Shown: one piece after another, positions 21,041 to 42,086 of the stretch
How the letters are laid out: the number at the start of each line of letters is the position of its first letter
How positions within the stretch are numbered: position 1 is the stretch's first letter
Source: Syntrophales bacterium
Lineage (GTDB): Bacteria; Desulfobacterota; Syntrophia; Syntrophales; UBA5619
Assembly: GCA_023229765.1 (NCBI GenBank)
Contig: JALNYO010000010.1
Location: 40,003 to 104,002 of the forward strand
Direction of reading: 5' to 3'
DNA: 64,000 bases
Notes under the pieces: generated by a model
The model's input: the letters and a program-made list of their open reading frames with translations, nothing else
The model's database searches: none
What the model was told of the DNA's origin: nothing
Program-made: the position numbers and the translations under genes

Positions 21041-23098
21041 TCAATCCGACTCCTCTTCCGCTCTCGGGATTGCTGTGGGCAGGTTTTCCGGGAGGATCGT
21101 CTCGACGCCATCGGGGGTTGTCCCTTCGAGGAAACACTCATAGATCACATCCTTGCCCGATCCTTGAGCCGGCAAACCGGTTTTTTGCCTGACCTTGACG
21201 AAAACGATTCCCTCCGGGGCGGGAAATTGCTCGGCAGGCGATTCTTCCAGAGCCTTTTGTGCAAAATAGAGCCAGATCGGCGCCGCCGCCCGGCCACCCA
21301 CCTCCTGTCGCGCCATCGATCTTTCCTGATCGAATCCCACCCATGCCCCTGCAACCAGCGACGGGGTGAAGCCAAGGAACCAGGCGTCGCGGGTATCGTC
21401 GGTTGTTCCGGTTTTTCCGGCAACCGGTCTTCCGAGCTTCTTTATCATCTGCGCCGTACCACTTTCAACAACATCCTGCATGACCCATGTCGTCATGAAC
21501 GCGATCCGCGGGTCCATCACCTGTTCAGACTTTGGCTGGGTCTCTTCAAAGACATGTCCGGTGCGATCGACGATCTTTTTGATGAAGAAGGGCTGAACCC
21601 GCTGCCCCCCGTTGGCAAGCACGCCGTAAGCCTGGACAAGTTCCTGCAGGGTAACGCCGGCGGTGCCGAGGGCCAGTGAGAGGTTGCGTGCCAGGGGCGA
21701 GGTTATTCCCATGTTTTTAGCATAGGCAATCGCATAATCCACCCCTATTTCTTCCAGAATCTTGATCGAGATGATGTTCCGGGAATGGATCAAGCCATTG
21801 TGCAAAGTCGTCGGTCCGAGAAATTTCCGGTCAAAATTTTGAGGCGTCCACACCCCATCCGGCTGCTGGGGATCGGGATAGACGATCGGGGAATCAACGA
21901 TAACCGTGGAGGGCGTCATTCCCTTGTCGAAGGCGGCGGTGTAGATCAGCGGTTTAAAAGCCGAACCCGGCTGGCGCCTGGACTGAGTCGCCCGGTTGAA
22001 CTCGCTGTGTTGGAAATTACGTCCTCCCACCATCGCCAGCACGGCGCCTGTTTTCGGATTCATCGCGTACAGGGAACCCTGAAGCTCCCCTTTTTTGTAG
22101 CCTTCCCGCTCTTCTACTTCACTTACACCGCGTTCAACGGCATCTCGCGCCGCCATCTGCATCTTGATGTCGAGCGTTGTGTAAACCTCCAGACCTTCCT
22201 TGTAAAGGACGTCTCCGCCGTATTTTTCCAGGATGTAGCGGCGAATGTTTTCGATGAAATAAGCGGCGATCTTGTCTTTTGGCTTTATCGAGCGCAACCG
22301 CACCTTTGTCGCCAGCGCCCGGTCCCGCTCTTTGGCCGTTATGTATCCATCCTCCAGCATCCTGTCGAGGACGTAGGCCTGCCGCTGGTAAGATTTATCA
22401 GGGTGCAGGTAGGGGGAATAAGCACTGGGCGCCTTTGGAAGTCCGGCCAGGATCGCGACTTCGGCAAGCGTCAGCTCTTTTGCGCTTTTCCCGAAATATC
22501 CCTGGGAGGCCGCCTCTATCCCGTAGGTCCCGTGGCCGAGATAGATATGGTTCAAATAGAGGGTGATAATCTCCTCTTTGGTCAGATATTTTTCAATCTT
22601 GAGGGCGAGGAGCGCCTCCCTGATCTTGCGCGTGTAGCTCTTCTCCGGGGAGAGGTAAAGCAGTTTTGCCACCTGCTGGGTAATAGTGCTTCCCCCTTGG
22701 ACGATGTGTCCCGCCCGGACATTCTTGAAAAAAGCCCGAAACAGGCTCTGCGTGTCGAAGCCGCCATGCTGGAAAAAACGCGAGTCTTCGGCGGCGATAA
22801 AGGCCTGGATAGCTATCTTCGGGATATCCTCGTACTTGACAACCTTGCGGTCCTCGAGAAAAAACTCGTCGATCAGTTCGTTGTTGTCCGCATAGACCCT
22901 GGTCGTGATGCTCGGGCGGTAATCCTTCAGGGCTGCAATACTGGGCAGCTCCTGCAGCAGCGCGAAATATACCAGACTGCTTCCCGCGAGGGCGGCGCCT
23001 ACGAAAAGCACTATAAAAGCAATAACGGCGATCCCCAGAAGGGAGCGGCGCGAGGCTGAGCGCTTCTTCTTTGGCAGGGTGGAATGTCTAATCGTCAT
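21041..23098 (-). CDS. mrcA: Penicillin-binding protein 1A (bifunctional glycosyltransferase/transpeptidase)
   Basis: 685 aa with an N-terminal membrane anchor. GT51 motifs are EDSRFFQHGG and GGSTITQQVAK. The transpeptidase motifs are SAFKP and KTGTT. Confidence 0.85.
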   Translation of the reverse strand: MTIRHSTLPKKKRSASRRSLLGIAVIAFIVLFVGAALAGSSLVYFALLQELPSIAALKDYRPSITTRVYADNNELIDEFFLEDRKVVKYEDIPKIAIQAFIAAEDSRFFQHGGFDTQSLFRAFFKNVRAGHIVQGGSTITQQVAKLLYLSPEKSYTRKIREALLALKIEKYLTKEEIITLYLNHIYLGHGTYGIEAASQGYFGKSAKELTLAEVAILAGLPKAPSAYSPYLHPDKSYQRQAYVLDRMLEDGYITAKERDRALATKVRLRSIKPKDKIAAYFIENIRRYILEKYGGDVLYKEGLEVYTTLDIKMQMAARDAVERGVSEVEEREGYKKGELQGSLYAMNPKTGAVLAMVGGRNFQHSEFNRATQSRRQPGSAFKPLIYTAAFDKGMTPSTVIVDSPIVYPDPQQPDGVWTPQNFDRKFLGPTTLHNGLIHSRNIISIKILEEIGVDYAIAYAKNMGITSPLARNLSLALGTAGVTLQELVQAYGVLANGGQRVQPFFIKKIVDRTGHVFEETQPKSEQVMDPRIAFMTTWVMQDVVESGTAQMIKKLGRPVAGKTGTTDDTRDAWFLGFTPSLVAGAWVGFDQERSMARQEVGGRAAAPIWLYFAQKALEESPAEQFPAPEGIVFVKVRQKTGLPAQGSGKDVIYECFLEGTTPDGVETILPENLPTAIPRAEEESD

Positions 23099-23874
23099 GA
23101 TTGGTCGGCTTCCTCGTTTTCGGCTTCTTCGGGGGATGATTTTTTCTTGCCGGCGAATTTTGTCAGAACAATGCTGACCTCGTAGAGAATCAGGAGCGGA
23201 CCTGCCATTAGAATCTGACTGATTGCGTCCGGAGAAGGTGTGAGAACGGCGGCGGCAATAAAAATAATCAGAATGGCATAGCGCCGCTGCTTTGCCAGCA
23301 TTTTTGAGTTGACGATCCCGATCTTGGCAAGAAAAAACAGGAATACCGGCATCTCGAAACTGAGACCGAAGGCAAGCAGAAATTTAAGCGTCAAACTCAG
23401 ATATTCACGGAACGAGATCATCGGCTTTAAAAAGTCTGTCGAAAAGCTGACAAAAAAACGAAAGGCCGGCGGCAGGGCAATAAAATAACCGAACAGCACC
23501 CCGCCGGCGAAAAGCAGTGAGGAGAAGAAGACAAACGGAACGACCGCCCGTTTCTCTTTTTTGTAAAGCCCGGGAGAGATGAAGCGCCAGATCTCGAACA
23601 GGGTATAGGGGGCAGTCAGCAGCAGAGAGGCAAAAAGGGCGATCTTCATGTGGATGAAGAATGCCTCTGGAAGTCCCGTGAAGATCATCGAACTTTGCGC
23701 CGGCATCGCCTCGACCAGCGGCTTGGTGATTACCTTGAAAGACCAGTCCTTAAACAGATAGCAGACCCCGAAGCCGATGGCGACAACGATCAGCACCCGG
23801 ATCAGGCGCGCCTTCAGCTCTTCGAGATGCGAGGTCAGGGGCAGTTTTTCTTCTTCTGAATTTTCCGTTTCCAT
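23095..23874 (-). CDS. tatC: Twin-arginine translocase subunit TatC
   Basis: 259 aa polytopic protein with an N-terminal LTSHLEELKARLIRV motif typical of TatC. It overlaps the PBP gene start by 4 nt. Confidence 0.9.
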   Translation of the reverse strand: METENSEEEKLPLTSHLEELKARLIRVLIVVAIGFGVCYLFKDWSFKVITKPLVEAMPAQSSMIFTGLPEAFFIHMKIALFASLLLTAPYTLFEIWRFISPGLYKKEKRAVVPFVFFSSLLFAGGVLFGYFIALPPAFRFFVSFSTDFLKPMISFREYLSLTLKFLLAFGLSFEMPVFLFFLAKIGIVNSKMLAKQRRYAILIIFIAAAVLTPSPDAISQILMAGPLLILYEVSIVLTKFAGKKKSSPEEAENEEADQS

Positions 23875-23916
23875 AGATTTATCGGTAAAAAAATGTTTAG
23901 AGGCGCCGTCGGAAGG

Positions 23917-24246
23917 CTATACATGAGGTTTGCGTTCGTCGCCTTTGGGGGAATTCTTTTTATCCTCGGCCGCGGTAGAATCGGGAGCGGCGTTTTTTGT
24001 CTCTTCCTTGCCACCATGTTCCTTGCCACCATGAAGCAGGGCATCTTTTATGCCGTCCATGTCCTTTTTCAGCTCGTCGGTTTTCAGCGTCTCCTTGATC
24101 GTTTCCGTTGCGCCGTCGGCCGCCCTGCGAAATTCGGAAAGCCCTTTTCCCAATGCTTTGGCAATATCCGGCAGCTTCTTGGGACCAACCACAAGCAGGG
24201 CGACTACCGCGATTACCAACAACTCCGGCATACCAATACCAAACAT
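23917..24246 (-). CDS. tatA: Twin-arginine translocase TatA/TatB-family protein
   Basis: 109 aa. The sequence MFGIGMPELLVIAVVALLVVGPKKLPDIAKALGKG is the TatA/E/B TM helix plus amphipathic helix signature. Confidence 0.85.
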   Translation of the reverse strand: MFGIGMPELLVIAVVALLVVGPKKLPDIAKALGKGLSEFRRAADGATETIKETLKTDELKKDMDGIKDALLHGGKEHGGKEETKNAAPDSTAAEDKKNSPKGDERKPHV

Positions 24247-24615: not shown

Positions 24616-25677
24616 ATGGCAAAAAATACCGGAATCGTCAAGAATGCGCAATATGTGCGGCACGGCGGCGTCTTTAGCCAGCCCGAGTCTCCCGAGCGGC
24701 TGAGCGCCATCTACGATATGCTCGAAAATCCAGATATGTCATGGAAATTCAACAACATCGATGCGCGATACGCCACGCGCAGAGAACTGGAGATGGTGCA
24801 TCTCCCCTCGTATATCGATGCTATCGCCGCTACGGCCGGGAAAAACCTGACAATGCTCGATCCCGACACCGCCGCAACCGCCGACACGTTTGATGCGGCA
24901 AGACTGGCCGCAGGCGGGTTTATCGCCGCCATTGACAGCGTTGTTTCTGGAGAGACGGACAACGCCTTCGCTATGGTGCGACCGCCCGGTCATCATGCGG
25001 CAGCAAATGCGGCGGCTGGTTTTTGCATCTTCAATAACATTGCCATCGGGGCCAGATACGCCCTGGATCGGCTGGGGATGAAACGGGTATTGATCGTGGA
25101 CTGGGATCTCCATCACGGCAATGGCACCCAGCAGGCCTTCTACGAAGATGACAATGTGTTGTATTTTTCGACGCATCAGTCTCCTGCCTATCCGTGGACG
25201 GGCCGCCCGGAGGAAACCGGAAAGGGGGAGGGCGCCGGCTATACGATCAACGTTCCTCTGCGGCCCGGTGCGGGTGATGCCATGTACATACGCGTCTTTC
25301 AAGATATTCTTCTGCCGGTAGCCCATAAATTCCGCCCGGAGATTATCCTGGTTTCGGCAGGGTTCGACCCCTATGAAGGCGATCCGCTCGGAGAGATGAA
25401 GGTGACGCCGGCGGGATTTGCCGGCCTTGCCCGGATTCTGCTCGATCTGGCGGAAGAGGTTTGCGGCGGCCGCGTTGTGGCGGCGCTGGAGGGCGGGTAT
25501 AACGTCTTGGGGTTGGTAAAGTGCGTCCGGGCGGTTTTACTGGAGTTTCTGGGAGAAACCCGGGCCACGCAAGAAGCGGTGGCGCGTCTTGCGAGCAAGG
25601 CCGATTTGGATAACGAACCGGCAATAGAAAACGTGCGGAAGCTGCAAGCGGCATATTGGCCGATTTTGAATGGATAA
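24616..25677 (+). CDS. Histone-deacetylase-family (AcuC/Aph-like) deacetylase
   Basis: 353 aa with motifs RPPGHHA, DWDLHHGNGTQ and EGGY, which are characteristic of zinc-dependent class I/II deacetylases. Confidence 0.85.
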   Translation: MAKNTGIVKNAQYVRHGGVFSQPESPERLSAIYDMLENPDMSWKFNNIDARYATRRELEMVHLPSYIDAIAATAGKNLTMLDPDTAATADTFDAARLAAGGFIAAIDSVVSGETDNAFAMVRPPGHHAAANAAAGFCIFNNIAIGARYALDRLGMKRVLIVDWDLHHGNGTQQAFYEDDNVLYFSTHQSPAYPWTGRPEETGKGEGAGYTINVPLRPGAGDAMYIRVFQDILLPVAHKFRPEIILVSAGFDPYEGDPLGEMKVTPAGFAGLARILLDLAEEVCGGRVVAALEGGYNVLGLVKCVRAVLLEFLGETRATQEAVARLASKADLDNEPAIENVRKLQAAYWPILNG

Positions 25678-25861: not shown

Positions 25862-26179
25862 TTGATAACATTTTCCGAAGCGGAATTGAGGGCTAAGGTT
25901 GTTAAGGCGATGGGCCATCCCGTGCGGATGATGGTCATCGGATTTATCCTGGATGGTGAACGCTCCTTTTCCGAAATATTCAAATTATTCAATTTGGATA
26001 AATCCACTATTTCCAAACATCTGCTTGTTCTGAAAGAATCAGGCATCATTTCTTCACGGAAAGTCGGCAGGGAAATGATCTATAGACTCGAAGAGACATG
26101 TGTGGCGAATTTCTTTTCATGTGCGACGGCCGTTGTTCAGAACAAGGTGGAGAAGCAATTGGAGGGGCTGAAGAGATAA
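25862..26179 (+). CDS. ArsR/SmtB-family transcriptional regulator
   Basis: 105 aa with wHTH GHPVRMMVIGFILDGERSFSEIFKLFNLDKSTISKHLLVLKESGII. It has no alpha-3 CxC metal site but does have a C-terminal CVANFFSC (C-X7-C) pair. TTG start after AGGAG. Confidence 0.8.
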   Translation: MITFSEAELRAKVVKAMGHPVRMMVIGFILDGERSFSEIFKLFNLDKSTISKHLLVLKESGIISSRKVGREMIYRLEETCVANFFSCATAVVQNKVEKQLEGLKR

Positions 26180-26195
26180 TTTTTTTTACGTTATG

Positions 26196-26211
26196 TTGGC
26201 AAATTTGCCAA
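26196..26211. promoter_or_regulatory. Perfect 16-nt palindrome TTGGCAAATTTGCCAA, candidate ArsR-type operator upstream of the extH-like operon
   Basis: It lies between the ArsR-family gene stop (26179) and the extH-like start (26332). The dyad symmetry is typical of ArsR/SmtB operators. Confidence 0.45.
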
Positions 26212-26331: not shown

Positions 26332-27774
26332 ATGTATAAAGACATGTTGAAAAATGGCAAAATGCGTTTGGTTTCATTGTTAGGTGCGATAGCAATAGTT
26401 TTTTTTGTTCTCTGGGGCTGCGGCGGTGGGACATCAAGTTATGATGCTGTCAATTACGACCCGGTGTTGACAAAAACCGCCAATGCGTTAGTCGATGCCA
26501 CAACATTGAAGGGCTGGATGGATCAGGGGCTTGTACAGGGAGTGTCTTCTCCATTCGTTGCAGGTGAAAAAGTCGTTATCCTTGATTACAAGGATGCAAC
26601 GGCCTATGCCAGTGGTCACATTCCGGGTGCCGTCAGGGTGGACGGCGGCGAACTGCTGCTTACCCGTCTCGAAGGCGTTGCGGAAATGGGGTCGCTTGTC
26701 ACTGACGGTCCGCATATGGATGCAATTATACAAAGGGCCGGCATCGATGCAAATACAACAATTGTTTTCACAAGCTCCAGTGTTTCCAACGCAACCAGAG
26801 CATATGCCACATTCCGCTATTGGGGATTCCCTAAGAGCCGGTTGAAAGTGCTCGATGGGGTCGATACCGTCTGGAAGGCTGCAAATCCAATGAGTCTGGC
26901 CACCCCGACTATAAAGCCCTCCAGTTATTGCGTTACGCCGAACGGCGTCAATCGCGTCCAGACGCAGCTTCGCGCTTCGCTGGGCGAAATGATGCATGCA
27001 GTTCAGAATTATGATGGGACGAAACACGCCATCATCGACGATCTGAGCAATCCGGCGAACGGCCTGGCAGTGCCGGTGACTTCGACTTCCACCTGGTCGG
27101 GGAATATTTACAAGGGGATTCCCGGATCGACATCGGGGTTACTTCCCTATGCAGTCAGCGCCACGACGGAATATGTGGTTTTTGAAGGACATATGAAAAA
27201 TGCCGTAAATTTGTACGCTACGAACATGTATGCTGGCAACGTATTCTTCCCCGCAGACGATGGCACTCCCGCCAGCCTCAAAAGCAAGTTCAACGCCGTC
27301 GGGATGGACGAGACAAAAACCGCTTATATCTACTGCCGCGCTGGCAACTTCGCGACGATTGAATTCTTTGCCCTGGATGGCATCTTGAACTGGAACGTCG
27401 TATGGTATGACGGTTCCTGGGGACAGTGGGCGCTCATGGCGGACAAGAAGGGCGGCAAACTAAAAGCGGGATCGATCTGGTCAACATACCCGCTCAGCGT
27501 TTCCGATCCCGTGCCGAACACTACCGATACGCTTCTGCCGAAATATGTAAGGGATGCGGTTGACGGAGTCACCTACAACACGGACAACACACCGGTCGGA
27601 AGTGCCGTAAAATATCCGATACAGCCTTTGCCCTATTACATTAATCTGGATGTCTTTACCTCGGTCACCGATCCGGCGGCAAACCAGATAGAAGCGACGG
27701 ACAAGGCTTACAAAAGCCCGCTTAGCTCACCCTCGGGCGGTTCTTCCGGCGGTTCCTCCGGCGGCGGCTGCTAA
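26332..27774 (+). CDS. extH: Tandem-rhodanese lipoprotein (ExtH-like) with Gly/Ser tail ending in Cys
   Basis: 480 aa. The lipobox is VLWGC. The first rhodanese domain is inactive and the second carries the catalytic loop YCRAGNFAT. The C-terminus reads SSPSGGSSGGSSGGGC-stop. The rhodanese-porin-small protein-pentaheme order matches my recollection of Geobacter ExtHIJK. Confidence 0.7.
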   Translation: MYKDMLKNGKMRLVSLLGAIAIVFFVLWGCGGGTSSYDAVNYDPVLTKTANALVDATTLKGWMDQGLVQGVSSPFVAGEKVVILDYKDATAYASGHIPGAVRVDGGELLLTRLEGVAEMGSLVTDGPHMDAIIQRAGIDANTTIVFTSSSVSNATRAYATFRYWGFPKSRLKVLDGVDTVWKAANPMSLATPTIKPSSYCVTPNGVNRVQTQLRASLGEMMHAVQNYDGTKHAIIDDLSNPANGLAVPVTSTSTWSGNIYKGIPGSTSGLLPYAVSATTEYVVFEGHMKNAVNLYATNMYAGNVFFPADDGTPASLKSKFNAVGMDETKTAYIYCRAGNFATIEFFALDGILNWNVVWYDGSWGQWALMADKKGGKLKAGSIWSTYPLSVSDPVPNTTDTLLPKYVRDAVDGVTYNTDNTPVGSAVKYPIQPLPYYINLDVFTSVTDPAANQIEATDKAYKSPLSSPSGGSSGGSSGGGC

Positions 27775-27844
27775 AAGGAAGGCTATGGATTGAGTCTGCT
27801 CGTGAAAAGAAAAAATTAAAACAACCTAATAAAAGGAGAACCCT

Positions 27845-29053
27845 ATGCCAAAAAACAGAATAACAGCAAAACTCGCAGCAGTTGTCCTTGGTGTGGCGCT
27901 GCTCGCCGGGACCGCCTATGCCGGTCCGCAAGTGAAGTTCGGGCCGAAAGATGAAGGTCTGCTGCAACTCGACTACAAGGGGCAATTGCAGATGACCATG
28001 CGCGACAATGGTTCCGGGACCAACAAGGAATCTGCCACCTATGATTTCAACTTTCGCCGCAACCGCCTGGCTCTCATGGGCAAATATGGCGAGCTGATAA
28101 GCATTTATGTGCAGACGGAGTACACCGAGCATCAGGATCTTGGCACGCTCACTGTAAGCGATACCGACAGCGGTTACGAGTTTCAGATGCTCGACGCGGT
28201 AGTGCGGTTCAACTTCGCTGATGCGTTCAAGGTGAACGCCGGCAAGTTCAAATACAACCTTTCGCGTGAAAACCTGGAAGCATGTGAAATGCCTCTTACC
28301 CTCGATCGGTCTCTCTTCATCCGCGCCCCCTATGTGACCACCCGTGACAAGGGTATCGCGATCTGGGGGAACCTGTTTGATGACATGTTCCAGTATCGGG
28401 CCGATGTCATGGAGGGGAGAAATGCCACTACCGCGGCCGCTCCCCAGCCGGAATCGAGTTTCCGGTATTCGGTGCGCGGCCATGTGACGCTTCTGGATCC
28501 GGAAAACGACTATGGCTATAAAGGGACCTATCTGGGGAATAAACAGGTTCTGACCATCGGCGCCGCCTATCAGTTTGAACCAGACGTCGCTTATGCGGAT
28601 ACCGTTGCCAAAACCGACGCGAAGGATTACAAGGCGTGGACGGCCGACATCTTTTTTGAATACCCCATAGAGAATTTTGGCACGGTTACCGCTTCCGCCG
28701 CCTATGAGGATATCGATCTCGGCAACGCATACAAGGGTTTTAATCCCGATCCAGATACGATTGGATTAAAGGGGGAGAAGAACGGTTTTTACGTAAAGGC
28801 CGGCTACATGCTGCCGAATACCCCGCTGCAGTTCTTTGCCAGATATGAAAAGTGGGCGTTTGCAAACCTGAATGGCATTGTCGACCAGGAGGTGGAATGG
28901 TACGGTGGAGGCTTCAATTACTACATCCGGGGCCAGAACCTGAAGATCACGCTTGAAGCGAGCAATACAAGTTTTGACAAGGGGACCGGGACCAGCGCCG
29001 ACAGTACCGAAAGTTTTATGACTTTCGTCGCGCAGCTTCAGGTTATCTTCTAA
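27845..29053 (+). CDS. extI: Outer-membrane beta-barrel porin (ExtI-like)
   Basis: 402 aa. The signal peptide ends in AGTAYA-GP. Alternating beta-strand periodicity is visible, and the C-terminal FVAQLQVIF has the terminal Phe typical of OMPs. Confidence 0.75.
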   Translation: MPKNRITAKLAAVVLGVALLAGTAYAGPQVKFGPKDEGLLQLDYKGQLQMTMRDNGSGTNKESATYDFNFRRNRLALMGKYGELISIYVQTEYTEHQDLGTLTVSDTDSGYEFQMLDAVVRFNFADAFKVNAGKFKYNLSRENLEACEMPLTLDRSLFIRAPYVTTRDKGIAIWGNLFDDMFQYRADVMEGRNATTAAAPQPESSFRYSVRGHVTLLDPENDYGYKGTYLGNKQVLTIGAAYQFEPDVAYADTVAKTDAKDYKAWTADIFFEYPIENFGTVTASAAYEDIDLGNAYKGFNPDPDTIGLKGEKNGFYVKAGYMLPNTPLQFFARYEKWAFANLNGIVDQEVEWYGGGFNYYIRGQNLKITLEASNTSFDKGTGTSADSTESFMTFVAQLQVIF

Positions 29054-29071
29054 GAAAAAAAGATCATATCC

Positions 29072-29114
29072 ATACGCCAGGCCGCATAATTTCGAATACG
29101 GCGGCTTGGCGTAT
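29072..29114 (+). other. Strong intercistronic stem-loop between porin and small-protein genes
   Basis: ATACGCCAGGCCGC pairs with GCGGCTTGGCGTAT (14 bp including one G-U) around a 15-nt loop. No U-tract follows. Confidence 0.5.
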
Positions 29115-29142
29115 CAAAACACTAAATGAAAAGGAGGATAAG

Positions 29143-29463
29143 ATGTCCGGAAGAATCAGGATCGGGATTATGGCGTTTTTGCTGGTTGTTTTAATGTCGG
29201 CATCGGCGATTGCGGCGGAGAAAATTAACTGCAAGGTTGCGAAGGTATCCGGGGACAAGGTTACCGTGGCAATCGAGGGAGCGGTTCCCCCGTGGGTGAA
29301 GAGCGGGGCTACGGTTATCGGCGGCGGCGGCGCCCCGAAGATTGTTTCAATGAAGGGCAATGAAGTTGTTCTGCGCTTCAGCAGAGCCAAGGCTGCCAAA
29401 ATCAAGGTTGACTCAACGATTTCCCTGGAAGAGTCGTCTGGGGATGAGCTTCAGGGCTGCTGA
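29143..29463 (+). CDS. extJ: Small secreted protein (ExtJ-like) ending in Cys
   Basis: 106 aa. The signal peptide reads MAFLLVVLMSASAIA-AEK and the mature protein is about 80 aa. The C-terminus is SSGDELQGC-stop. RBS AAAGGAGG lies upstream. Confidence 0.6.
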   Translation: MSGRIRIGIMAFLLVVLMSASAIAAEKINCKVAKVSGDKVTVAIEGAVPPWVKSGATVIGGGGAPKIVSMKGNEVVLRFSRAKAAKIKVDSTISLEESSGDELQGC

Positions 29464-29552
29464 TTCTAAAGAGGGGGGCGACCGCACTTTCGCGTGTAAG
29501 GAGCTTTCAACATGCGGTTGTCTTCCCTAAAACAGGTTAGAGAGAGGTGGGT

Positions 29553-30905
29553 ATGATAAAAATACCAATGAAAGGTCTGCTGTTGGCGGTTATAGGGATC
29601 ATCGCCTTCGCTTCTCTTTCGTTTGCGGAAAAGGCCGGGATCGGTTGGAAAGAAACCATCGTCGCCAAATCCGGAAAGGCAAAGAGCGTTGCAGAGCTGG
29701 CAAAGATGTATGATTCGAGCTCGTGCGTTGAATGTCACAAGGAGCAGCATGACGAGGCTCAGAAGTCTATTCATTCGCGCTCGATTTTCGGCACGGCGCG
29801 TACAGCGATGACGATCATGAGCTCTATTGAAAATGGCTGGATGGAACAGCCTTATTCGGGGGTGAAGAGTCCGAAAGATGTGAAGGTGGAGCATCTGATG
29901 GGATGTGCGAAGTGCCATCTGCCGCAGCTTGCGGACGCCGAGGACTCGGTTGCCCAGGAGATTGTTACGTCTCTTTACCGCTGGAAAGACGCTCTGAAGA
30001 GGAAGGACAAGGAGACGGCGCAGAAGGAAGAAGCCAAACTGAAGAGCGTTTCCATTAACTGTCTTGTCTGCCATAACCGTAACGCCATCACCCATAAATG
30101 GCAGGATGGCTATCCGAAGGCGGGCGTTGTTTACGGCTCGAAGGATGGGGATCATCCCTCGGATGCTTTTCCGAAGATGGCAGTCAGTCCCATTATGAAA
30201 GAGGCGATTCAGTGCGGCCAGTGCCACGGGCTCGGCCCGAATTTCGAGCTGGACGAACCGACCCAGTGCTGCACTTCTTACGGCAGCTATCTTTGGTCGT
30301 ACAAATCCGAGGTGGGACAAGAGTCCTGTCAGGGTTGCCACATGGAAAAGAGCAAGCTCGGTCATAATATCCAGGGATATAGGGACCCGGCGATGATTAA
30401 GGATGCGGTCGACTTCAAGGTCGAGGCATTCGGATACTACTGGCGCGACATAACCGACCTTGTTCCGAAGGTTGTGGTGAAGGTGGAGATGATCAACCGG
30501 TCGGGACACTCCATCCCCGATGGGTGACCGACCCCCAACCGACTGGTTCTGTCGGTAATTGCAACAACGAAGGATGGCGAAGAGGTTTTCAATCAGGAAA
30601 AGGTTTACATGCCGGTGCCGCAGCAATTGGCCCGGGGGGACCGGATGGGACGAGGCCCTTATGAAAAGAGCGGGATAATCGAGGATACTGGTCTCCCTCC
30701 CGGCAAGGCTGTTCATGAGCGTTTCGATATTCTTTATCCGTTCGGCGATGTAAAGGAGAACGGGAAGACGGTCAATAAACAGCTGGCGCACGATCTGAAT
30801 GTCGAAGTGAAGCTCTGGTACCTTCCGTTCGGGTCGATGAATTCGAATGCGTTTCTCTGGCGTGAATTCAAAAAGACCGTCAGCGTCAGCACGAAAGGGA
30901 AATAG
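29553..30905 (+). CDS. extK: Periplasmic pentaheme c-type cytochrome (ExtK-like), probable selenoprotein with UGA at 30525-30527 read as Sec
   Basis: Signal peptide plus five CxxCH motifs (CVECH, CAKCH, CLVCH, CGQCH, CQGCH). Track ORFs 29547-30527 and 30609-30905 share one frame. The 81 nt between them contain no stop. The UGA falls inside a contiguous beta-rich domain (VKVEMINRSGHSIPDG-U-PTPNRLVLSVIATTKDGEEV). A SECIS-like hairpin follows (see feature 30525-30556). Confidence 0.65.
30525..30556 (+). other. In-frame UGA plus SECIS-like hairpin
   Basis: The UGA is at 30525-30527. The stem ACCGAC (30538-30543) pairs with GTCGGT (30551-30556) around the 7-nt loop UGGUUCU, which contains GGUU. 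The first loop G is 20 nt from the U of UGA. Confidence 0.55.
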
Positions 30906-30959
30906 CAGACACGGGGACAGTTAAGTCCGGTGTCGGACAACAGCAAGCAGTTGAAAGCG

Positions 30960-30992
30960 ACCGACGGGGGGAAATCCCGTCGGTTCTTTTTT
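30960..30992 (+). terminator. Rho-independent terminator ending the extHIJK-like operon
   Basis: ACCGACGGG-GGGAAAT-CCCGTCGGT (9-bp GC-rich stem) is followed by TCTTTTTT, 55 nt after the stop at 30905. Confidence 0.75.
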
Positions 30993-31092
30993 GAGAATTC
31001 GTGCAAACAGCTTGACTGAGCGATGAGTTGATTATAGAAGCATTCCGTAAAGACGATCAGCGCAACTGCTGACATAACCGTGATCGACGCCA

Positions 31093-32931
31093 ATGGTTTA
31101 TAACCGGCTTTTTCCGTCATTTTTGATTCTGCTGTCTCTTCTCGGCTGTAACCAGCCGGATATGCGGACATCGACCTGCGAATCCTGCCACAGGGGCATC
31201 GAGATACTCTCTCCTGCTCACCATTCCTGTGTTTCCTGCCATCGCGGAGACGACCGGACGCTCGATGCCAAAAAAAGTCATCAGAACATGCTGGGACCGA
31301 AGAATCCATCCGCTCCCGATACCTGGGAAAAGGGCTGCGGAGAGTGTCACTACCACCAGCTAAGCCGCATGCGTTCCAATCTGATGTACACGACGACTGG
31401 CATGATCAAGAATATCCAGTTGACCTGGGAAGGTGAAAACGGGCGTCTTTACGCGGGCAAGGCCGACCGGGTGTTCGACGCCCGGGGGCATGAGCTGCTG
31501 CTCAACGGTGTCGCCGATCTCGATCATCTCTCCGGCGAATTGTACCGCAAGTTCTGTTCCCAGTGCCATGTGGGGATCGATACCACCAACGTTTACACGG
31601 CGAGCCACGCGGCTGGCTGCGCGGCCTGCCATTTCCCATACAACGACCGGGCGACTTACGAAGGGAAGGAGCCGTCGCTCAAAGGTAAATCACCCTATTC
31701 CGCAAGCCACCAGATGGAAAAACTTCCAGACAACAAGGTTTGCGTTCGCTGTCACAACCGCAGCGGCCGGATCGCCCTTTACTACGAGGGATTCAATGAT
31801 GGCAGCAACTCTCTCGTGCCGACCAGAAACGGATCTCCCGGACCGGTCATGTTGAGCGGCAACCGCAATGCCACCCACATCGCCCCGGACGTTCATTTTG
31901 TCGCGGGCATGGACTGCATAGACTGTCATACTTCGCGGGACGTCATGGGGGACGGTTACGCGTATGAAAACATGTATCTCCAGACGGAGATCAGTTGCGA
32001 GGATTGCCATGGCGGGGGAGATTCCCGGCCCCGGTACCGCGAAATAACGAGGGAAAGCGATGAGGCGCTGCGCGAGTCTCAGCAGTACAAGATCAAGATG
32101 CGTCCGGGGATGAAGATGATGCTTACCGCCAAAGGGCGGATGTATTCCAATGTTTTTTACCAGGATGGGATTGTCTATGTTCTCGGCAAAAGGAGCGGGA
32201 AACTGTTCAAAAGCAAGGTTATTTCCGGAACTCCGGAGCATGCCGTCTTCGGGCATGACCGTCTGGAATGCTATGCCTGCCATTCGCGCACGGTGGCCCA
32301 GTGTTATGGATGCCACACCAACTATGACAAAACAAAGCCGGGGATAGATTATATCAAGCAAATGGTCACCCCCGGCCGCTTCAGCGAGACCGAGGATTAC
32401 CGGGCGCTCTATCCGTTTCCACTGGCGCTGAATCAGCGGGGCAAGATTTCCCCTGTCACGCCCGGTTGTCAGACTTTTGTCACCGTCATCGAGGCGGATG
32501 GAACTGTTTCCAAAAACGAATACGTGGCAAAGTTCAAAGGAAAGAGTCAGTTGCGTTTTGCCCCGTTTTATTCGCATAATACCGGAACGAAGGCGATCGG
32601 GTGCAATGAATGCCACGCCAATCCATCATTTCTCGGTTTCGGCCAGCATGTGGTCGAGGGAAACAGCATAAACGCCACGATGATCTGCGAAAAATCGGAG
32701 AGCAAGCCGCTGGACGGCTATATCACCATGGAACAGGGAAAGGTGCGGTCCTTCTCCGCCATCACCCGTGAAAATTCCCGCCCTTTGAACGGAAAAGAGG
32801 TGCGGCGCACGCTCGCCGCCAATCTCTGCATCGTTTGTCATGACAAGGCAAAAGACCCGATTTACCGAAAGGAACTTGATTATAATGCGCTTGATGATAA
32901 GCTGCATCGCCGCCTGCTTGCTGTTCATTAA
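31093..32931 (+). CDS. Dodecaheme c-type cytochrome lipoprotein
   Basis: 612 aa. The lipobox is LSLLGC. I counted 12 CxxCH motifs: CESCH, CVSCH, CGECH, CSQCH, CAACH, CVRCH, CIDCH, CEDCH, CYACH, CYGCH, CNECH, CIVCH. Confidence 0.85.
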   Translation: MVYNRLFPSFLILLSLLGCNQPDMRTSTCESCHRGIEILSPAHHSCVSCHRGDDRTLDAKKSHQNMLGPKNPSAPDTWEKGCGECHYHQLSRMRSNLMYTTTGMIKNIQLTWEGENGRLYAGKADRVFDARGHELLLNGVADLDHLSGELYRKFCSQCHVGIDTTNVYTASHAAGCAACHFPYNDRATYEGKEPSLKGKSPYSASHQMEKLPDNKVCVRCHNRSGRIALYYEGFNDGSNSLVPTRNGSPGPVMLSGNRNATHIAPDVHFVAGMDCIDCHTSRDVMGDGYAYENMYLQTEISCEDCHGGGDSRPRYREITRESDEALRESQQYKIKMRPGMKMMLTAKGRMYSNVFYQDGIVYVLGKRSGKLFKSKVISGTPEHAVFGHDRLECYACHSRTVAQCYGCHTNYDKTKPGIDYIKQMVTPGRFSETEDYRALYPFPLALNQRGKISPVTPGCQTFVTVIEADGTVSKNEYVAKFKGKSQLRFAPFYSHNTGTKAIGCNECHANPSFLGFGQHVVEGNSINATMICEKSESKPLDGYITMEQGKVRSFSAITRENSRPLNGKEVRRTLAANLCIVCHDKAKDPIYRKELDYNALDDKLHRRLLAVH

Positions 32932-34135
32932 CCCGGCGGGCGGCGCTGCCGGTAAAAACTGCACATCCTGTCATCAGGTTGTATTGAAAGGCATCCATGC
33001 GGCGCTTTCGTGCGCATCCTGCCACCGCGAAAAGCCGGACGTCATCGCCGATCCGGCATCCGGAAAGCATCATGCCGCCGGCTGCGTCGGCTGCCATCAG
33101 GGTTACGGCGCCCTGTTCGATCATGCCATGGCGACCAGAAGCAGGGAGAAGCTCTTTGTTCAGCGAACTATCGGCAACAGCGACTCCGGTTTTTTCGGAA
33201 AAAACTGCGGCTCCTGCCACCTGAAGAGTTGCACCGACTGCCACGGGGGGAAGGGGCACAACATCGTCAAGGCAGCGGACAAAAGCTGCATGGCCTGTCA
33301 CAAGGGGTATTACGTCGGGATGGAGTACTACGGGATGGCGCCCCGGGAAGACAGCAGCCGTTACCAGAGAGGCAAGGCAGCTTTTGGCGAAAAATCCCTG
33401 AAAATGCTCCCGGACGTTCACGCGGAGGCGGGCATGACCTGCGGGGCCTGTCACTCCATGAAAAGCCTCGTTACGGGGGCGAAGTCTTCCCGGAAATGCG
33501 TCGATTGCCATCAGGCGCAGAAAACCGTCGTCGAGCACCGCATAAAGGCTCACATGGAAAAGCTGGAATGTTATGCCTGCCATTCCGCCTGGGCGGCGCA
33601 GGAGTACGGAACCTTCTATCTCCGTTTTATAAACAGCCCAGTGCAGAGGGAGTTTGAGGCAGTCAAAAACAGAGGGGAATATGTGAAAAGTTCCTATCTC
33701 AAGAAACAGGATGCCCCGCCTTTGGGGGTCAATGCCGCAGGCAGAGTCAGTCCAATCCGGCCCGAGTTTATTTTCTACGGAACGACCGTCAAAAACAACC
33801 GGCCGGAAGGAAAGGAAAGCCGGCTGCTTGCCGCCGAATGGAAGGCCTTTTTCCCGCATACGATAAGGCGGGGGACTCTCATGTGCGATGGCTGCCATGA
33901 AAATTCCCGGCGTTTTATTATGGAAAAAAAAGAGGACAGGATTTATAACCTTCCTGCCGACGGGATGACGCTCCCCTCTTTCTGGGAGCGAACTGGCCAG
34001 AAGGTTGTCAATGGAGATTTTCTGCCCCGTGAACGCTATCTGCGGATGTCGAAAAAAACGCCGGCTTATTGGAGAGGATACCTGGAAAAATGGCAAAAAC
34101 TGGTCAATCGCGTCGACGGTTCCTCGTCGCATTAG
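32885..34135 (+). CDS. Decaheme c-type cytochrome
   Basis: I counted 10 CxxCH motifs: CTSCH, CASCH, CVGCH, CGSCH, CTDCH, CMACH, CGACH, CVDCH, CYACH, CDGCH. I prefer the start at ATG 32885 (MRLMISCIAACLLF..., a short signal or possible lipobox IAAC), which overlaps the upstream gene end. Confidence 0.8.
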   Translation: MRLMISCIAACLLFINPAGGAAGKNCTSCHQVVLKGIHAALSCASCHREKPDVIADPASGKHHAAGCVGCHQGYGALFDHAMATRSREKLFVQRTIGNSDSGFFGKNCGSCHLKSCTDCHGGKGHNIVKAADKSCMACHKGYYVGMEYYGMAPREDSSRYQRGKAAFGEKSLKMLPDVHAEAGMTCGACHSMKSLVTGAKSSRKCVDCHQAQKTVVEHRIKAHMEKLECYACHSAWAAQEYGTFYLRFINSPVQREFEAVKNRGEYVKSSYLKKQDAPPLGVNAAGRVSPIRPEFIFYGTTVKNNRPEGKESRLLAAEWKAFFPHTIRRGTLMCDGCHENSRRFIMEKKEDRIYNLPADGMTLPSFWERTGQKVVNGDFLPRERYLRMSKKTPAYWRGYLEKWQKLVNRVDGSSSH

Positions 34136-34482
34136 CGTTTCTGGCAACAGGGCTTCTCTCGCTGACGAGGTTTTTGAAACCGGCCGCCAAGAGCAAAAAG
34201 ACGTTGCTCGCCGTGGCCGAGAAAGACATTCCGAGTAACGGCGCCCTCGTGTATAAGGAGGCGCGAGTCGCCATCATCAGGGAGTCGGGTAAAATATCTG
34301 CCGTCAGTCTGGTTTGCACCCATCTGGGCTGCACCGTTTCCGCGACGACCGATGAGCTTGTCTGTCCGTGCCACGGAAGCAGTTTTGACTGGAAGGGAAT
34401 CGTCATCAAGGGACCGGCGGACCGGCCTTTGCCGCAGTACAAGGTGGAAGAACGCGACGGACGGATTGTGGTACTGCTGTAA
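34090..34482 (+). CDS. Rieske 2Fe-2S protein with Tat signal and membrane anchor
   Basis: The twin-arginine motif SRRRFLVALAFLATG is present. Rieske boxes are CTHLGC and CPCHGS (bc1/b6f type). I prefer ATG 34090 over the TTG at 34069. Confidence 0.85.
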   Translation: MAKTGQSRRRFLVALAFLATGLLSLTRFLKPAAKSKKTLLAVAEKDIPSNGALVYKEARVAIIRESGKISAVSLVCTHLGCTVSATTDELVCPCHGSSFDWKGIVIKGPADRPLPQYKVEERDGRIVVLL

Positions 34483-34515
34483 TTATGGATTGACAGAGAC
34501 AAGAAGCGGAAACAT

Positions 34516-35178
34516 TTGCCAATTTTGACGGCAATCCCTCAGCGAGGAGAAGATTTTTTGTTCAAGGATTTTTTTAAACACATATTTCCCCGGATTGTAC
34601 TGCTGGGCAATCTGCGGATAACCTATACCTTCTGCCTGGGCGGGCTGGCCTTTACCACGTTTTTACTGCTTATCGCCTCCGGGCTGCTGCTCCTTTTTTA
34701 TTACCAGCCTGCGCCGGAACGGGCGTTTCAATCCATCCTGTTTCTGGAAGAATCGGTCTGGGGGGGGCGGTATCTGCGGAGCCTGCACCGGCTTTCTTCC
34801 CACTTTTTTCTCGTCCTCATTTTTCTCCACACCCTGCGGGTCATACTTACCGGGGCCTACCGCAAGCCGCGTGAGTTCAACTGGGCGATCGGGTTTTCAC
34901 TCCTCTGCATTACGATTTTCGATGCGTACACCGGCTATCTGCTGCCAATGGACCAGCTCAGCCTGTGGGCGACCCAGACGGGGATGGAGCTGGTCGGGAC
35001 AACGTTTCCGGGACCGCAGGTACGGGGGATCCTTGTGCCCGACGGAGTCGGCCAGCCGATGTCGCTGCTGCGTTTTTATATACTGCACATCGTGCTGCTG
35101 CCACTGTCGGTACTTTCTCTTTCCGTTCTCCATTTCTACCGCATCCGGAAAGACCGGGGACTTTTGCCGTATCTGTGA
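34516..35178 (+). CDS. Cytochrome b (b6-like N-terminal half, four-helix heme-b domain)
   Basis: The sequence carries RSLHRLSSHFFLVLIFLHTLRVILTGAY and RFYILHIVLLPLSVLSLSVLHFYRIRK, the conserved His pairs of helices B and D. The start is uncertain: TTG 34516, or TTG 34558 preceded by GAGGAG. Confidence 0.85.
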   Translation: MPILTAIPQRGEDFLFKDFFKHIFPRIVLLGNLRITYTFCLGGLAFTTFLLLIASGLLLLFYYQPAPERAFQSILFLEESVWGGRYLRSLHRLSSHFFLVLIFLHTLRVILTGAYRKPREFNWAIGFSLLCITIFDAYTGYLLPMDQLSLWATQTGMELVGTTFPGPQVRGILVPDGVGQPMSLLRFYILHIVLLPLSVLSLSVLHFYRIRKDRGLLPYL

Positions 35179-35211
35179 GTCTTTTTTCATCTTAGTCGCT
35201 GAGGTGCGATT

Positions 35212-35628
35212 GTGAAAGATTACATAAAGAGTTCGCCGCATTTTTTTCGCCTGATAAAACTGGCGGCAGCGCTTTTCTGCGGGGCGGTTTTCGTGCTGGC
35301 GTTCTTTATCACGGCGCCGCTTCAGGCGCCGGCAGACATCCGCCATGTTCCCAATCCGGTCAAGTCGGCATGGTTTCTGCTCTGGATTCAGGAACTTGTC
35401 AGCTATTCCCGCTATCTTTCGTATCTGGTCGCCGCGATCGGAGCTTTTTTTCTGCTCATCCCCTGGCTGCCGATCAGCCCCCCGGCCACCCGGGCCAGAT
35501 GGTTTGCCGGCGGCCAGTTCCCGGTGACAGTCATCACGGTTGTCACGTTTACGGCCATTTTAGCGTTGACGATTATAGCCATGTTCTTCAGGGGTGAAAA
35601 TTGGTCTTTTATCGCGCCTGTCTGGTAG
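35212..35628 (+). CDS. Cytochrome b C-terminal-half / subunit-IV-like membrane protein
   Basis: 138 aa with 3 predicted TM helices. PNPVKSAWFLLWIQELVSY occupies the position of the PEWYF-type motif of PetD/cytochrome b C-terminal domains. GTG start after GAGGTG. Confidence 0.6.
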   Translation: MKDYIKSSPHFFRLIKLAAALFCGAVFVLAFFITAPLQAPADIRHVPNPVKSAWFLLWIQELVSYSRYLSYLVAAIGAFFLLIPWLPISPPATRARWFAGGQFPVTVITVVTFTAILALTIIAMFFRGENWSFIAPVW

Positions 35629-36422
35629 CAATATTACTTGCGGTCTCTCTCGCGGATTACGCCTTTCCCGCCCGGCAGAGCGTCTGTATCACCTGCCACC
35701 AGCCTCACTATTCCGGCAAGGGGAGCTGTGTGAGCTGTCACAGGGGTGACGACCGTACCGGGCGTAAGGAAATCGCCCATTATGATCTTGTTGCCGGCAG
35801 ATTTGCCCACTATAAAATCGAGGGGAGTCCGGTGGCGGAGCGGGGGAAAAAACTTCTGGAGCGATTCTCCTGCCGGCGCTGTCATCGTTACGCGGAAAAG
35901 GGGAACCATCTGGCGGGGAGTCTCGATGTGACGGGAGCGACTGGAAAGGTCCGTGATATCTACGAGTCAATCAGGGTGCCGGTGCTCTTCATGCCGAACT
36001 TCCATGCGAACGACGCCCAGATTGCCGATCTGGTGAACGCCATCCTGGCGCGTGCAAAATTTCAAAAGCCGCCGGTGGGAGAAACCGCCCTTATAGTTCA
36101 TTTTCAGGACGTGAAAAATATCCGGAAGAACGTATTTGCCGGAAAATGCGGCAAGTGCCACAAAATCCTCAGCGAACAATCGGGCGGGCTGGGGAGCGGC
36201 TATATTGGTCCGAACCTGTCCGGGCTTTTTTCCGAATTTTATCCCAGGACGTATCGCGACGCGGAATCATGGAATCCCGACAAGCTCAAGAAATGGCTGG
36301 AAAATCCACGTGATATCAGGATAAACGCCATGATGCCGCCGGTGCGGCTTGCACCCGAGGAGTTTGAGCAGCTGCGGGGAATCATCCAGCTCGATAAATC
36401 CTTGCCCGATGCACCCAGGTAG
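35601..36422 (+). CDS. Tetraheme c-type cytochrome (last domain class-I-like with Met ligand region)
   Basis: 273 aa with a signal/anchor ACLVAILLAVSLA. Four CxxCH motifs are present (CITCH, CVSCH, CRRCH, CGKCH). The C-terminal GPNLSG...WLENP...MMPP is typical of class I cytochrome c. Confidence 0.8.
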   Translation: MVFYRACLVAILLAVSLADYAFPARQSVCITCHQPHYSGKGSCVSCHRGDDRTGRKEIAHYDLVAGRFAHYKIEGSPVAERGKKLLERFSCRRCHRYAEKGNHLAGSLDVTGATGKVRDIYESIRVPVLFMPNFHANDAQIADLVNAILARAKFQKPPVGETALIVHFQDVKNIRKNVFAGKCGKCHKILSEQSGGLGSGYIGPNLSGLFSEFYPRTYRDAESWNPDKLKKWLENPRDIRINAMMPPVRLAPEEFEQLRGIIQLDKSLPDAPR

Positions 36423-36665: not shown

Positions 36666-36938
36666 ATGAAAAATGTTAACGCGTTGAAGATAAGAAATCA
36701 GTTAGGCGCAATCTTGGAGGAACTCAGCGAAACCGGAGAGCCGGTTCTTATCAGCAAGGGACGAAAGGTTCGGGCCGTGTTGGTTACACCCGAACAGTTT
36801 GAAAGACGGTTTCTCGATTTTCAGACGGAAGAAAAAAAGCGGGAGCTTCTTGAGAAGATAGAATCCCTTCGGGCCGGGCGAATCGGGGGAAAAAGCAGCA
36901 CGGATGTGCTACGAGAGTTAAGAGGGTATGAAGTATGA
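36666..36938 (+). CDS. Type II antitoxin, Phd/YefM family
   Basis: 90 aa. The N-terminus VNALKIRNQLGAILEELSETGEPVLISKGRKVRAVLV is the Phd/YefM fold signature. It overlaps the downstream PIN gene by 4 nt (ATGA). Confidence 0.8.
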   Translation: MKNVNALKIRNQLGAILEELSETGEPVLISKGRKVRAVLVTPEQFERRFLDFQTEEKKRELLEKIESLRAGRIGGKSSTDVLRELRGYEV

Positions 36939-42024: not shown

Positions 42025-42086
42025 TTCGACCGGGGTTTTTGCTGTGGCGCCGACCCTGCGGTCCGGGAAGCCTGAGCCGATTTCTC

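Follow-up and report, generated by a model that had tools for sequence, protein, structure and literature searches.

How insoluble elemental sulfur (S0), or the polysulfide formed from it, gains entry to a reductase in the periplasm is an old question, and the genes located directly upstream of the polysulfide reductase MccSep are the obvious candidates for an answer. We have analyzed a window of 64,000 nucleotides (the whole stretch of DNA considered here, positions 40,003 to 104,002 of contig JALNYO010000010.1) from a metagenome-assembled genome (MAG) of an uncultured Syntrophales bacterium, in which four open reading frames (ORFs) on the same strand, at 26332-30905, code for ExtH, ExtI, ExtJ and a pentahaem cytochrome. 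Our conclusion, to which we give a probability of about 0.7, is that the region is the orthologue of the extHIJKL-extMNOPQS cluster of Geobacter sulfurreducens and that it most likely serves the periplasmic reduction of S0-derived polysulfide, selenite being a side substrate. Both the system and its annotation exist already, the cluster having been described in G. sulfurreducens (PMC5877670, PMC6148476), and the Syntrophales locus adds a further copy. What is added here is a selenocysteine correction, a conserved terminator, a wider taxonomic range and the evidence from conserved cysteines and gene replacement, which makes the entry of sulfur directly testable. The four genes are the following, with lengths in amino acids (aa) and scores set against the cut-offs of the models:

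26332-27774, + strand: ExtH, rhodanese lipoprotein, 480 aa; NF040901, 356 bits against a cut-off of 200; Pfam Rhodanese (PF00581) twice
27845-29053, + strand: ExtI, porin, 402 aa; NF040900, 680 bits against 150; Pfam Porin_O_P (PF07396), 51.4 against 20.9 bits
29143-29463, + strand: ExtJ, small periplasmic protein, 106 aa with a signal peptide; NF040942, 59.9 against 52.5 bits
29547-30905, + strand: ExtKL (MccSep), pentahaem cytochrome, 452 aa including selenocysteine (Sec) 327; NF040886, 428 bits against 250 before the TGA and 130 bits after it

A preliminary description of this DNA had proposed an ExtHIJK-like operon with these four protein types at these same coordinates, and the ORF listing, the Pfam searches and the count of CXXCH motifs agree with it. 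The Ext identity is borne out as well, with all four proteins above the cut-offs of the NCBIfam equivalog models named for ExtH, ExtI, ExtJ and ExtKL (for ExtJ, the Pfam search gave no domain). We checked for a lack of similarity to the Ext proteins and for a loss of the gene order in relatives and found neither, since the curated scores were passed and the order H-I-J-KL is kept in related loci.

The cytochrome needed a correction. Its five CXXCH motifs (at positions 60, 120, 172, 223 and 261 of the protein) are as described before, but an in-frame TGA at 30525-30527 (+ strand), in the context HSIPDG-U-PTPNR, interrupts the frame, and the end at 30905 therefore requires that this codon be read as Sec, which the preliminary description had missed. 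Judging from the sequence, the cytochrome is one protein, ExtKL (MccSep), only with this reading. The TGA was found at the Sec position in 33 out of 33 intact related loci. The read-through protein matches the crystal structures of G. sulfurreducens MccSep (PDB 9wt8 and 9wt9) with 784 bits and 75% identity, and the catalytic set is kept: R85, H124, C241, U327 and K374 align with R83, H122, C239, U325 and K372, the essential residues of that enzyme (PMC13510729). Among them, H124 and C241 (matching H122 and C239) are the predicted His and Cys ligands of haem 2.

Shortly after the TGA, the minimum-free-energy fold contains a hairpin resembling a selenocysteine insertion sequence (SECIS), located at 30538-30556 (+ strand; ACCGAC-UGGUUCU-GUCGGU), with a stem that begins 13 nt past the U of the UGA. 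The 33 nt following the TGA are nearly invariant in 34 sequences from several phyla. At the third codon positions of codons +4 to +9 the entropy was 0-0.38 bit, against 1.3-1.8 bit at other four-fold sites with an equally invariant amino acid, and the rare variants of the hairpin (in L062 and L080) preserve the stem by replacing an A-U pair with G·U. Rfam gave no SECIS or other family, either over the whole window at gathering thresholds or over 30400-31100 with permissive settings, and the support for the element therefore comes from the fold and the conservation of synonymous sites. The RNAfold z-score of a 72-nt stretch (z = 0.95) was not significant and we have not used it as evidence. Automatic annotation still cuts the selenoprotein in two: the public gene calls (L081 5709-7061, the same DNA as 29553-30905 of the window) split it into 324 and 98 aa, the second "gene" beginning at an internal Met, as was once the case for GSU2937/GSU2936.

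The reading as a polysulfide reductase comes from the G. sulfurreducens enzyme. MccSep, defined in a paper of August 2026, is a periplasmic pentahaem homotetrameric selenoenzyme that cleaves S-S bonds by means of its Sec and of the Cys that ligates haem 2 (PMC13510729). It reduces polysulfide and, less well, selenite, with K0.5 values of 0.19 and 0.99 mM (five-fold lower for polysulfide) and a Vmax/K0.5 seven-fold higher for polysulfide; S0 induces the enzyme, and S0 respiration is lost when it is deleted (PMC13510729). With 75% identity and the catalytic residues kept, we would predict Sec incorporation, a homotetramer and polysulfide reductase activity for the Syntrophales protein too.

To place the locus among its relatives, we have scanned species-representative genomes with ExtI as anchor, obtaining 80 loci onto which the proteins of the window were mapped by tblastn. 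The two closest belong to Syntrophales and Syntrophus MAGs (L001 and L002). The order H-I-J-KL was found in at least 30 of the 80, and it continues into MNOPQS in L001, L002, L005-L009, L012-L015, L020, L031, L079 and others. The full order is present in Syntrophales, in many Geobacterales (Geomonas, Geotalea, Citrifermentans, Geomobilimonas) and in several "Deltaproteobacteria" MAGs, and related clusters appear in MAGs labelled Vicinamibacteria or Acidobacteriota, Eisenbacteria, Krumholzibacteriia and Myxococcales. The cluster thus extends past the Geobacteraceae, and the statement that ExtI is confined to that family (PMC5877670) no longer holds. An ExtH-like rhodanese was located upstream of ExtI wherever the upstream sequence was present. 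Every locus that bears ExtKL has a small secreted ExtJ-like ORF ending in Gly-Cys, including those in which tblastn had missed ExtJ. The normal place of this divergent ORF is between ExtI and ExtK; it is found directly upstream of ExtK in L075 and L080, in which KL stands apart from H-I, and it is absent where ExtM directly follows ExtI. ExtH-ExtI occurs twice in some MAGs, the two sets being located on separate contigs (e.g., L003 and L023, or L022 and L026).

In six of the loci H-I-J is followed by another enzyme, located in the place of MccSep:

L026, 11952-16038: replacement enzyme
L055, 3255-7434: replacement enzyme
L067, 11133-14483: replacement enzyme
L068, 4639-8708: replacement enzyme
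L069, 11149-15309: replacement enzyme
L073, 1650-6013: replacement enzyme

Family searches in L026, L055, L067 and L069 identified it as a Tat-exported molybdopterin enzyme nearest to PhsA/PsrA (549 bits in L067), and the sets of these four loci include a 4Fe-4S subunit together with a subunit that is either NrfD-type or a cytochrome b. For L068 and L073 the assignment to the same group comes from matching gene order, protein sizes and N-terminal sequences. The PsrABC-like set of L069 sits exactly between ExtJ and ExtM. By family and position, the Psr-like enzyme behind H-I-J is a non-orthologous replacement by another type of sulfur reductase. L026 additionally encodes a TorD-like chaperone. 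A different case is L025, with neither MccSep nor a molybdoenzyme between ExtJ and ExtM; at 11656-12471 it encodes a protein of 271 aa, possibly with a Tat-type signal, that belongs to the C_GCAxxG_C_C "putative redox-active" family.

Downstream of extKL, the window continues with six more genes of the cluster on the same strand:

31093-32931, + strand: ExtM, 12-haem c-type cytochrome (12 CXXCH) with lipobox LLGC; NF040943, 1075 against 800 bits
32840-34135, + strand: ExtN, 10-haem c-type cytochrome (10 CXXCH); NF040967, 654 against 200 bits
34069-34482, + strand: ExtO, Rieske iron-sulfur protein with a Tat-type signal (SRRRFL); Rieske/PetC models, E 1e-12 to 1e-16
34516-35178, + strand: ExtP, cytochrome b6-like membrane subunit; best match NF040969, 220 bits with a cut-off of 290; cytochrome b6, 157 bits
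35212-35628, + strand: ExtQ, membrane subunit with three hydrophobic segments in a hydropathy scan; NF040970, 188 against 150 bits
35601-36422, + strand: ExtS, four-haem c-type cytochrome (4 CXXCH), last gene of the cluster; NF040971, 326 against 100 bits

The listed frames overlap by 92 nt at extM/extN (32840-32931), 67 nt at extN/extO (34069-34135) and 28 nt at extQ/extS (35601-35628), and many other loci show overlaps of similar size in their tblastn coordinates. From their family membership, ExtO, ExtP and ExtQ would make up a quinol oxidase of the Rieske/cytochrome b kind that draws electrons from the quinol pool, and ExtM, ExtN and ExtS would pass them on to MccSep, which would reduce polysulfide in the periplasm as its orthologue, 75% identical, does in G. 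sulfurreducens. The comparison with the cluster of that species (GSU2940-GSU2930, with ExtKL as MccSep, PDB 9wt8-9wtc) gives the same ten genes in the same order. The curated Ext models are passed by all of them except ExtO, recognized by the Rieske models, and ExtP, with a score below the cut-off. MccSep keeps its Sec, the haem-ligating Cys and the R and K substrate residues, there is a terminator after extKL, and the SECIS sequence is shared with 33 related loci. The differences include the host, a Syntrophales MAG and not a member of the Geobacteraceae, and the presence of a co-directional ArsR-type regulator and a palindrome, with no divergent LysR.

The NCBIfam models of this cluster carry the name "selenite/tellurite reduction operon", which would make it a system for the uptake and reduction of these compounds, dedicated to detoxification of chalcogen oxyanions or to selenium acquisition, with polysulfide as a secondary substrate. 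Deletion of extI in G. sulfurreducens lowers the reduction of both selenite and tellurite and raises sensitivity (PMC5877670), and MccSep does reduce selenite, which is bound at R83 beside the Sec in the crystal (PMC13510729). We nevertheless consider this purpose improbable. MccSep prefers polysulfide, is induced by S0 and is needed for S0 respiration (PMC13510729), an enzyme of the Psr/Phs type takes its place behind H-I-J in six loci, and a Rieske/cytochrome b complex with 26 haems would be a large investment for a trace element. Selenite and tellurite reduction is real biochemistry and probably a side activity.

If MccSep reduces polysulfide in the periplasm, what does the porin do? Searched by sequence against the Protein Data Bank (PDB), ExtI had no match, and a fold comparison was therefore needed. 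The AlphaFold2 model, built on an alignment of 29 sequences, is a 16-strand barrel (pLDDT 60, pTM 0.62). Foldseek gave OprP (2o4v) and OprO (4rjx) as top matches, followed by porins of the OmpF/OmpC class, and no MtrB-type structure appeared among the 50 best PDB matches listed. MtrB, the barrel of the MtrCAB/PioAB-type porin-cytochrome conduits, has 26 strands and about 700 aa, and such a sheath has a decahaem cytochrome on its periplasmic side and another at the outer surface. The preliminary description had argued that a 402-aa porin is small for the sheath of a cytochrome and may rather be a solute channel, naming a strand count as a check; the 16 strands and the matches to solute porins support it. 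It had also named an S or Se oxyanion as the solute, and here only the channel part stands, polysulfide sulfur being the likelier cargo now that ExtKL has been recognized as MccSep, a polysulfide reductase (PMC13510729). Earlier predictions for ExtI of G. sulfurreducens gave 12 strands (PMC5877670) and 21 strands (PMC6148476).

ExtI resembles the Pseudomonas aeruginosa porins OprP and OprO in its family (PF07396), in the 16 modelled strands, in being matched best by their structures and in its many conserved basic residues, of which 21 positions are at least 95% conserved across the 80 loci. It differs from these phosphate and diphosphate porins in an identity of only about 15% and in an invariant Cys located in the stretch of loop L3. 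In G. sulfurreducens the phosphate-binding residues of ExtI are mostly lost, with just D94 and K121 remaining from the OprP site, and the protein is not induced by phosphate limitation (PMC5877670).

These data bear on the reading that gave the Ext genes their name, namely an outer-membrane electron conduit in which ExtI would be a sheath for contact between redox proteins and Fe(III), Mn(IV) or electrodes outside the cell would receive the electrons. The cluster was first catalogued as such; as in MtrCAB/PioAB, an outer-membrane barrel and a lipoprotein are clustered with multihaem cytochromes (5, 12, 10 and 4 haems). Deletion of extHIJKL in G. sulfurreducens leaves Fe(III) citrate reduction at about 65% of the wild type, and a strain with extHIJKL alone retains 50-75% of the wild-type reduction of Fe(III) and Mn(IV) oxides (PMC6148476), which a conduit would explain as well. 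Unlike in MtrCAB/PioAB, the barrel has 402 aa and 16 modelled strands with solute porins as its matches, the lipoprotein is a rhodanese and not a cytochrome, and the adjacent cytochrome is a catalytic enzyme, soluble and periplasmic, with a Cys ligand that blocks its active-site haem (PMC13510729). A sulfide/S0 shuttle could be the indirect cause of the metal-oxide phenotype. All in all, we regard a conduit as very improbable.

Several points weigh against the reading of the cluster as a polysulfide reduction system. To our knowledge there is no sulfur-respiring member of the Syntrophales, and the function proposed for this organism is extrapolated from sequence and from data on orthologues. 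About 21 of the 80 loci (e.g., L003, L004, L011, L017, L028, L029, L032, L035, L039) have H-I followed directly by MNOPQS, with neither J nor KL, so that H-I do not strictly need an adjacent MccSep. The ExtI model is only moderately confident, with the putative L3 stretch below a pLDDT of 50, and ExtP stays under its curated cut-off (220 against 290 bits), though the ExtP model is its best match. The selABCD genes are not in the 64-kb window and no tRNA was found there either. In the papers on the cluster that we read, no S0 phenotype is given for extH, extI or extJ mutants, and the metal-oxide reduction of the extHIJKL-only strain mentioned above has to be counted here too.

The comparison of the 80 loci also revealed a set of conserved cysteines. 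In ExtI, Cys147 is the sole cysteine; it is invariant (80/80 loci) and is the only Cys of most homologues. It lies in the near-invariant motif GKFKYNLSRENLEACEMPLTLDR, which falls, in the model, within the stretch that leads from the end of strand 5 towards strand 6. We take this stretch, where the local model has low confidence, to correspond to loop L3, which forms the eyelet in porins with 16 strands. A profile search over 1.84 billion representative proteins found the Cys in all 21 ExtI-like relatives that cover the motif, and all the more distant Porin_O_P proteins of the same search had Gly, Ala, Ser, Thr or Pro instead. By these alignments, Cys147 marks the ExtI subfamily within Porin_O_P. 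In L075 a second porin paralogue of 465 aa (19412-20809, minus strand), separate from the ExtH-ExtI pair of that locus, carries the same loop-L3 Cys motif (…NLDDCFAPLTYDRS) and is located directly upstream of an ExtJ-like ORF and ExtKL.

ExtH begins with a lipoprotein signal (…FFVLWGC, lipobox VLWGC) and follows the tandem-rhodanese pattern, with two Pfam stretches and a putative catalytic Cys335 (CRAGNFAT) in the loop of the C-terminal domain that is invariant in 59/59 homologues; thiosulfate sulfurtransferases of the PDB match residues 81-210 and 285-369. Three cysteines, Cys30 (the lipid anchor), Cys335 (the rhodanese) and Cys480 (the last residue), are kept in 97-100% of the 59 homologues, whose identity falls as low as 25-40% (34-41% against the Geobacterales copies in related loci). 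All ExtH reading frames examined end in Gly-Cys except two, both partial matches. In the window, the tail is made of 20 Gly/Ser-rich residues, the last of them Cys480 (…GGGC). Among homologues the tail after the conserved Tyr460 measures 18-27 residues, with a median of 21 and with 19-23 in 50 of 56 sequences; it is hypervariable in sequence and is composed of 71% Gly/Ser/Thr with 2.8% charged residues. The gene as a whole stands out even against a close relative. ExtH is 65% identical to the L002 copy, against 97-99% for ExtI and ExtKL and mostly 90-99% for the other proteins of the cluster, and the DNA identity drops to 52-76% (window 26400-27800) against mostly 90-98% elsewhere in the cluster and 75-81% around extJ. 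This island of divergence suggests fast evolution or allele replacement of a lipoprotein that is probably exposed.

The third protein, ExtJ, was modelled by AlphaFold2 as a six-strand beta-barrel with a pLDDT of 75.6 overall, 85-90 over residues 28-97 and 49 in the tail, which is probably flexible. It ends in Gln-Gly-Cys, the terminal Cys106 being present in 26 of 26 close homologues. A fold search gave no PDB match at E<=1e-3. Its likeness to the F1-ATPase crown domain and to the N-domain of riboflavin synthase (E>=1.4e-3) is that of generic six-strand barrels, and we have inferred no function from it.

Taken together with the gene order, these features point to an outer-membrane module of ExtH, ExtI and ExtJ that would supply sulfur to the reductase. 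The proposal fits because extI deletion has the phenotypes described above and affects ExtH (selenite uptake is impaired and the outer-membrane localisation of ExtH disturbed; Jahan 2019, as summarised in PMC8981825), because MccSep is swapped for Psr-like enzymes behind the same three genes, and because the outer-membrane route of polysulfide was called unknown in the MccSep paper (PMC13510729). On the present comparison, ExtH at the outer membrane would load sulfane sulfur onto Cys335 of its rhodanese, ExtI, a 16-strand channel of the anion-porin type, would let the sulfur through, and ExtJ, the small periplasmic barrel, would present it to MccSep on its C-terminal Cys. The 80 loci provide experimental handles for such a module in the three invariant Cys (at the C-terminus of ExtH, in the putative L3 stretch of ExtI and at the C-terminus of ExtJ), in the presence of ExtJ with every MccSep locus and in the Psr-like replacement behind H-I-J.

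There are parallels in known systems. Sud of Wolinella succinogenes is a soluble single-domain periplasmic transferase of polysulfide sulfur that feeds the polysulfide reductase PsrABC, and the Ext module shares with it a rhodanese-fold protein with one active Cys and a proposed hand-over of sulfur to a polysulfide reductase; six loci even pair H-I-J with a PsrABC-like enzyme. Unlike Sud, the module adds a lipid anchor, a dedicated porin and a second small carrier, and it has an enzyme with haem and selenocysteine as its reductase. Proposals of a similar kind, made informally by authors who studied Desulfurivibrio and Dissulfuribacter, concern OprO/P-like porins and lipoprotein sulfurtransferases beside Psr or Ttr genes.

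How the sulfur would move within the module is a separate matter. The simpler possibility is that ExtI is a passive porin for polysulfide and other anions, that free polysulfide diffuses to MccSep, and that the conserved Cys serve folding, partner binding or contact with haem or metal. This we consider a serious contender, if somewhat short of an even chance. MccSep reduces free polysulfide in vitro with no partner (PMC13510729), the 21 conserved basic positions of ExtI are those expected of an anion channel, and persulfide adducts on ExtH, ExtI and ExtJ are hypothetical only. Yet three unrelated proteins of the module each keep a single exposed Cys across 25-98% sequence divergence, the hypervariable tail of ExtH keeps its length (mostly 19-23 residues) and its lack of charge, and the Cys of ExtI vanishes exactly at the boundary of the subfamily. 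These features would fit a covalent thiol relay, from ExtH Cys335 to Cys480, then to ExtI Cys147, ExtJ Cys106 and MccSep Sec327, which might carry sulfane sulfur, caught outside the cell as a persulfide on Cys335, over the outer membrane; we put it forward as a doubtful but specific idea. In such a relay the uncharged Gly/Ser tail of ExtH, of about 21 residues and some 70 Å when extended, would be long enough to enter the ExtI pore. What MccSep truly acts on would be persulfidated ExtJ rather than free polysulfide, the terminal carboxylate of ExtJ being docked at the anion site R85/K374, and the same relay might feed the Psr-like molybdoenzymes of other phyla. Cys30 of ExtJ, at the mature N-terminus, was tried as a further relay residue and left out because nearly all homologues have Gly there.

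Precedents exist for both the chemistry and the topology of a relay. SoxYZ, the sulfur carrier of sulfur oxidation, holds its cargo on the Cys of a C-terminal GGCGG swinging arm, and ExtH (…GGGC) and ExtJ (…QGC) likewise have Gly-containing, flexible C-terminal arms with a single invariant Cys, the tails being of low complexity or low model confidence. They are no SoxY-type carriers, having no relation in sequence or fold (ExtJ is a six-strand barrel) and having the Cys as their very last residue. The lipoprotein RcsF of Escherichia coli, a stress sensor with no sulfur chemistry, threads a flexible segment through the lumen of OmpA, OmpC or OmpF. The dependence of ExtH localisation on ExtI, as reported in the summary of Jahan 2019 (PMC8981825), is similar, and the threading of ExtH is hypothetical.

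How is the module expressed? The preliminary description had considered the unit a self-contained operon, bounded by an upstream palindrome and a strong terminator, and both elements were confirmed. The features involved are:

25862-26179, + strand: regulator of the ArsR/SmtB family with a helix-turn-helix, 105 aa; NF033788, 68.6 bits against a cut-off of 55; Pfam HTH_5
26196-26211: perfect 16-bp palindrome, TTGGCAAATTTGCCAA
30959-30992, + strand: intrinsic terminator or attenuator, a hairpin with an 11-pair stem (7 G-C pairs) and a T-run

A hairpin and T-run were found after extKL in 22 of the 25 loci in which KL and M are adjacent, with a stem that differs in sequence in most of them. Against the near-identical L001 and L002 the stem has one change, and it is compensatory (GACCGACGGGGGG…CCCGTCGGTT in the window, GACCGGCGGGAGG…CCCGCCGGTT in L001). 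The conservation of the terminator at this point makes extHIJKL a conserved transcriptional module, and transcription of this unit would end or be attenuated at 30959-30992. Self-contained is too strong a word, however, as the syntenic extMNOPQS genes at 31093-36422, probably the supplier of electrons, follow on the same strand; by gene order, the extHIJKL module is always upstream of these probable electron-supply genes.

The ArsR-type protein is a candidate to regulate the cluster here, where Geobacterales have a LysR. A divergent LysR upstream of extH has been reported for nearly all Desulfuromonadales clusters (PMC6148476) and we have found it in L003, L005, L031 and L049 (Pfam HTH_1 and LysR_substrate); the window has the co-directional ArsR-type gene there, a difference in an accessory feature and not in a defining one. 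L002 has a regulator copy, 92% identical, in the same place. Near its C-terminus the protein of the window carries a pair of cysteines spaced by seven residues (Cys80 and Cys87, CVANFFSC), and its weak best specific matches include the sulfite-sensing repressor BigR (48 bits against a cut-off of 155); persulfide sensing by this putative regulator is conceivable. The palindrome lies 17 nt past the stop codon of the regulator, with 120 nt between it and extH. A pattern search confirmed it and found no second copy in the window, where chance would give 0.02; a repeat search with a 10-nt minimum did not list it, probably because its arms have only 8 nt. It is present with one mismatch in L002, and L001 has neither palindrome nor regulator. 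We infer that it is a candidate operator, and regulator and palindrome together probably control extHIJKL. A sigma-54 promoter (TGGCA...GCCAA) was considered for the palindrome and rejected on inspection, since its GG-to-GC offset is 9 nt and that of the consensus 12 nt.

The surroundings of the cluster include ordinary housekeeping genes. Upstream are TatC and TatA (23095-24246, minus strand) and a gene of the histone-deacetylase family (24616-25677), and downstream GatA, GatB, MtnA and Kup (37992-44225). The synteny between the window and L002 ends at extS, and exactly at the end of this similarity a Phd/YefM antitoxin and PIN-domain toxin pair (36666-37363) adjoins the last gene of the cluster.

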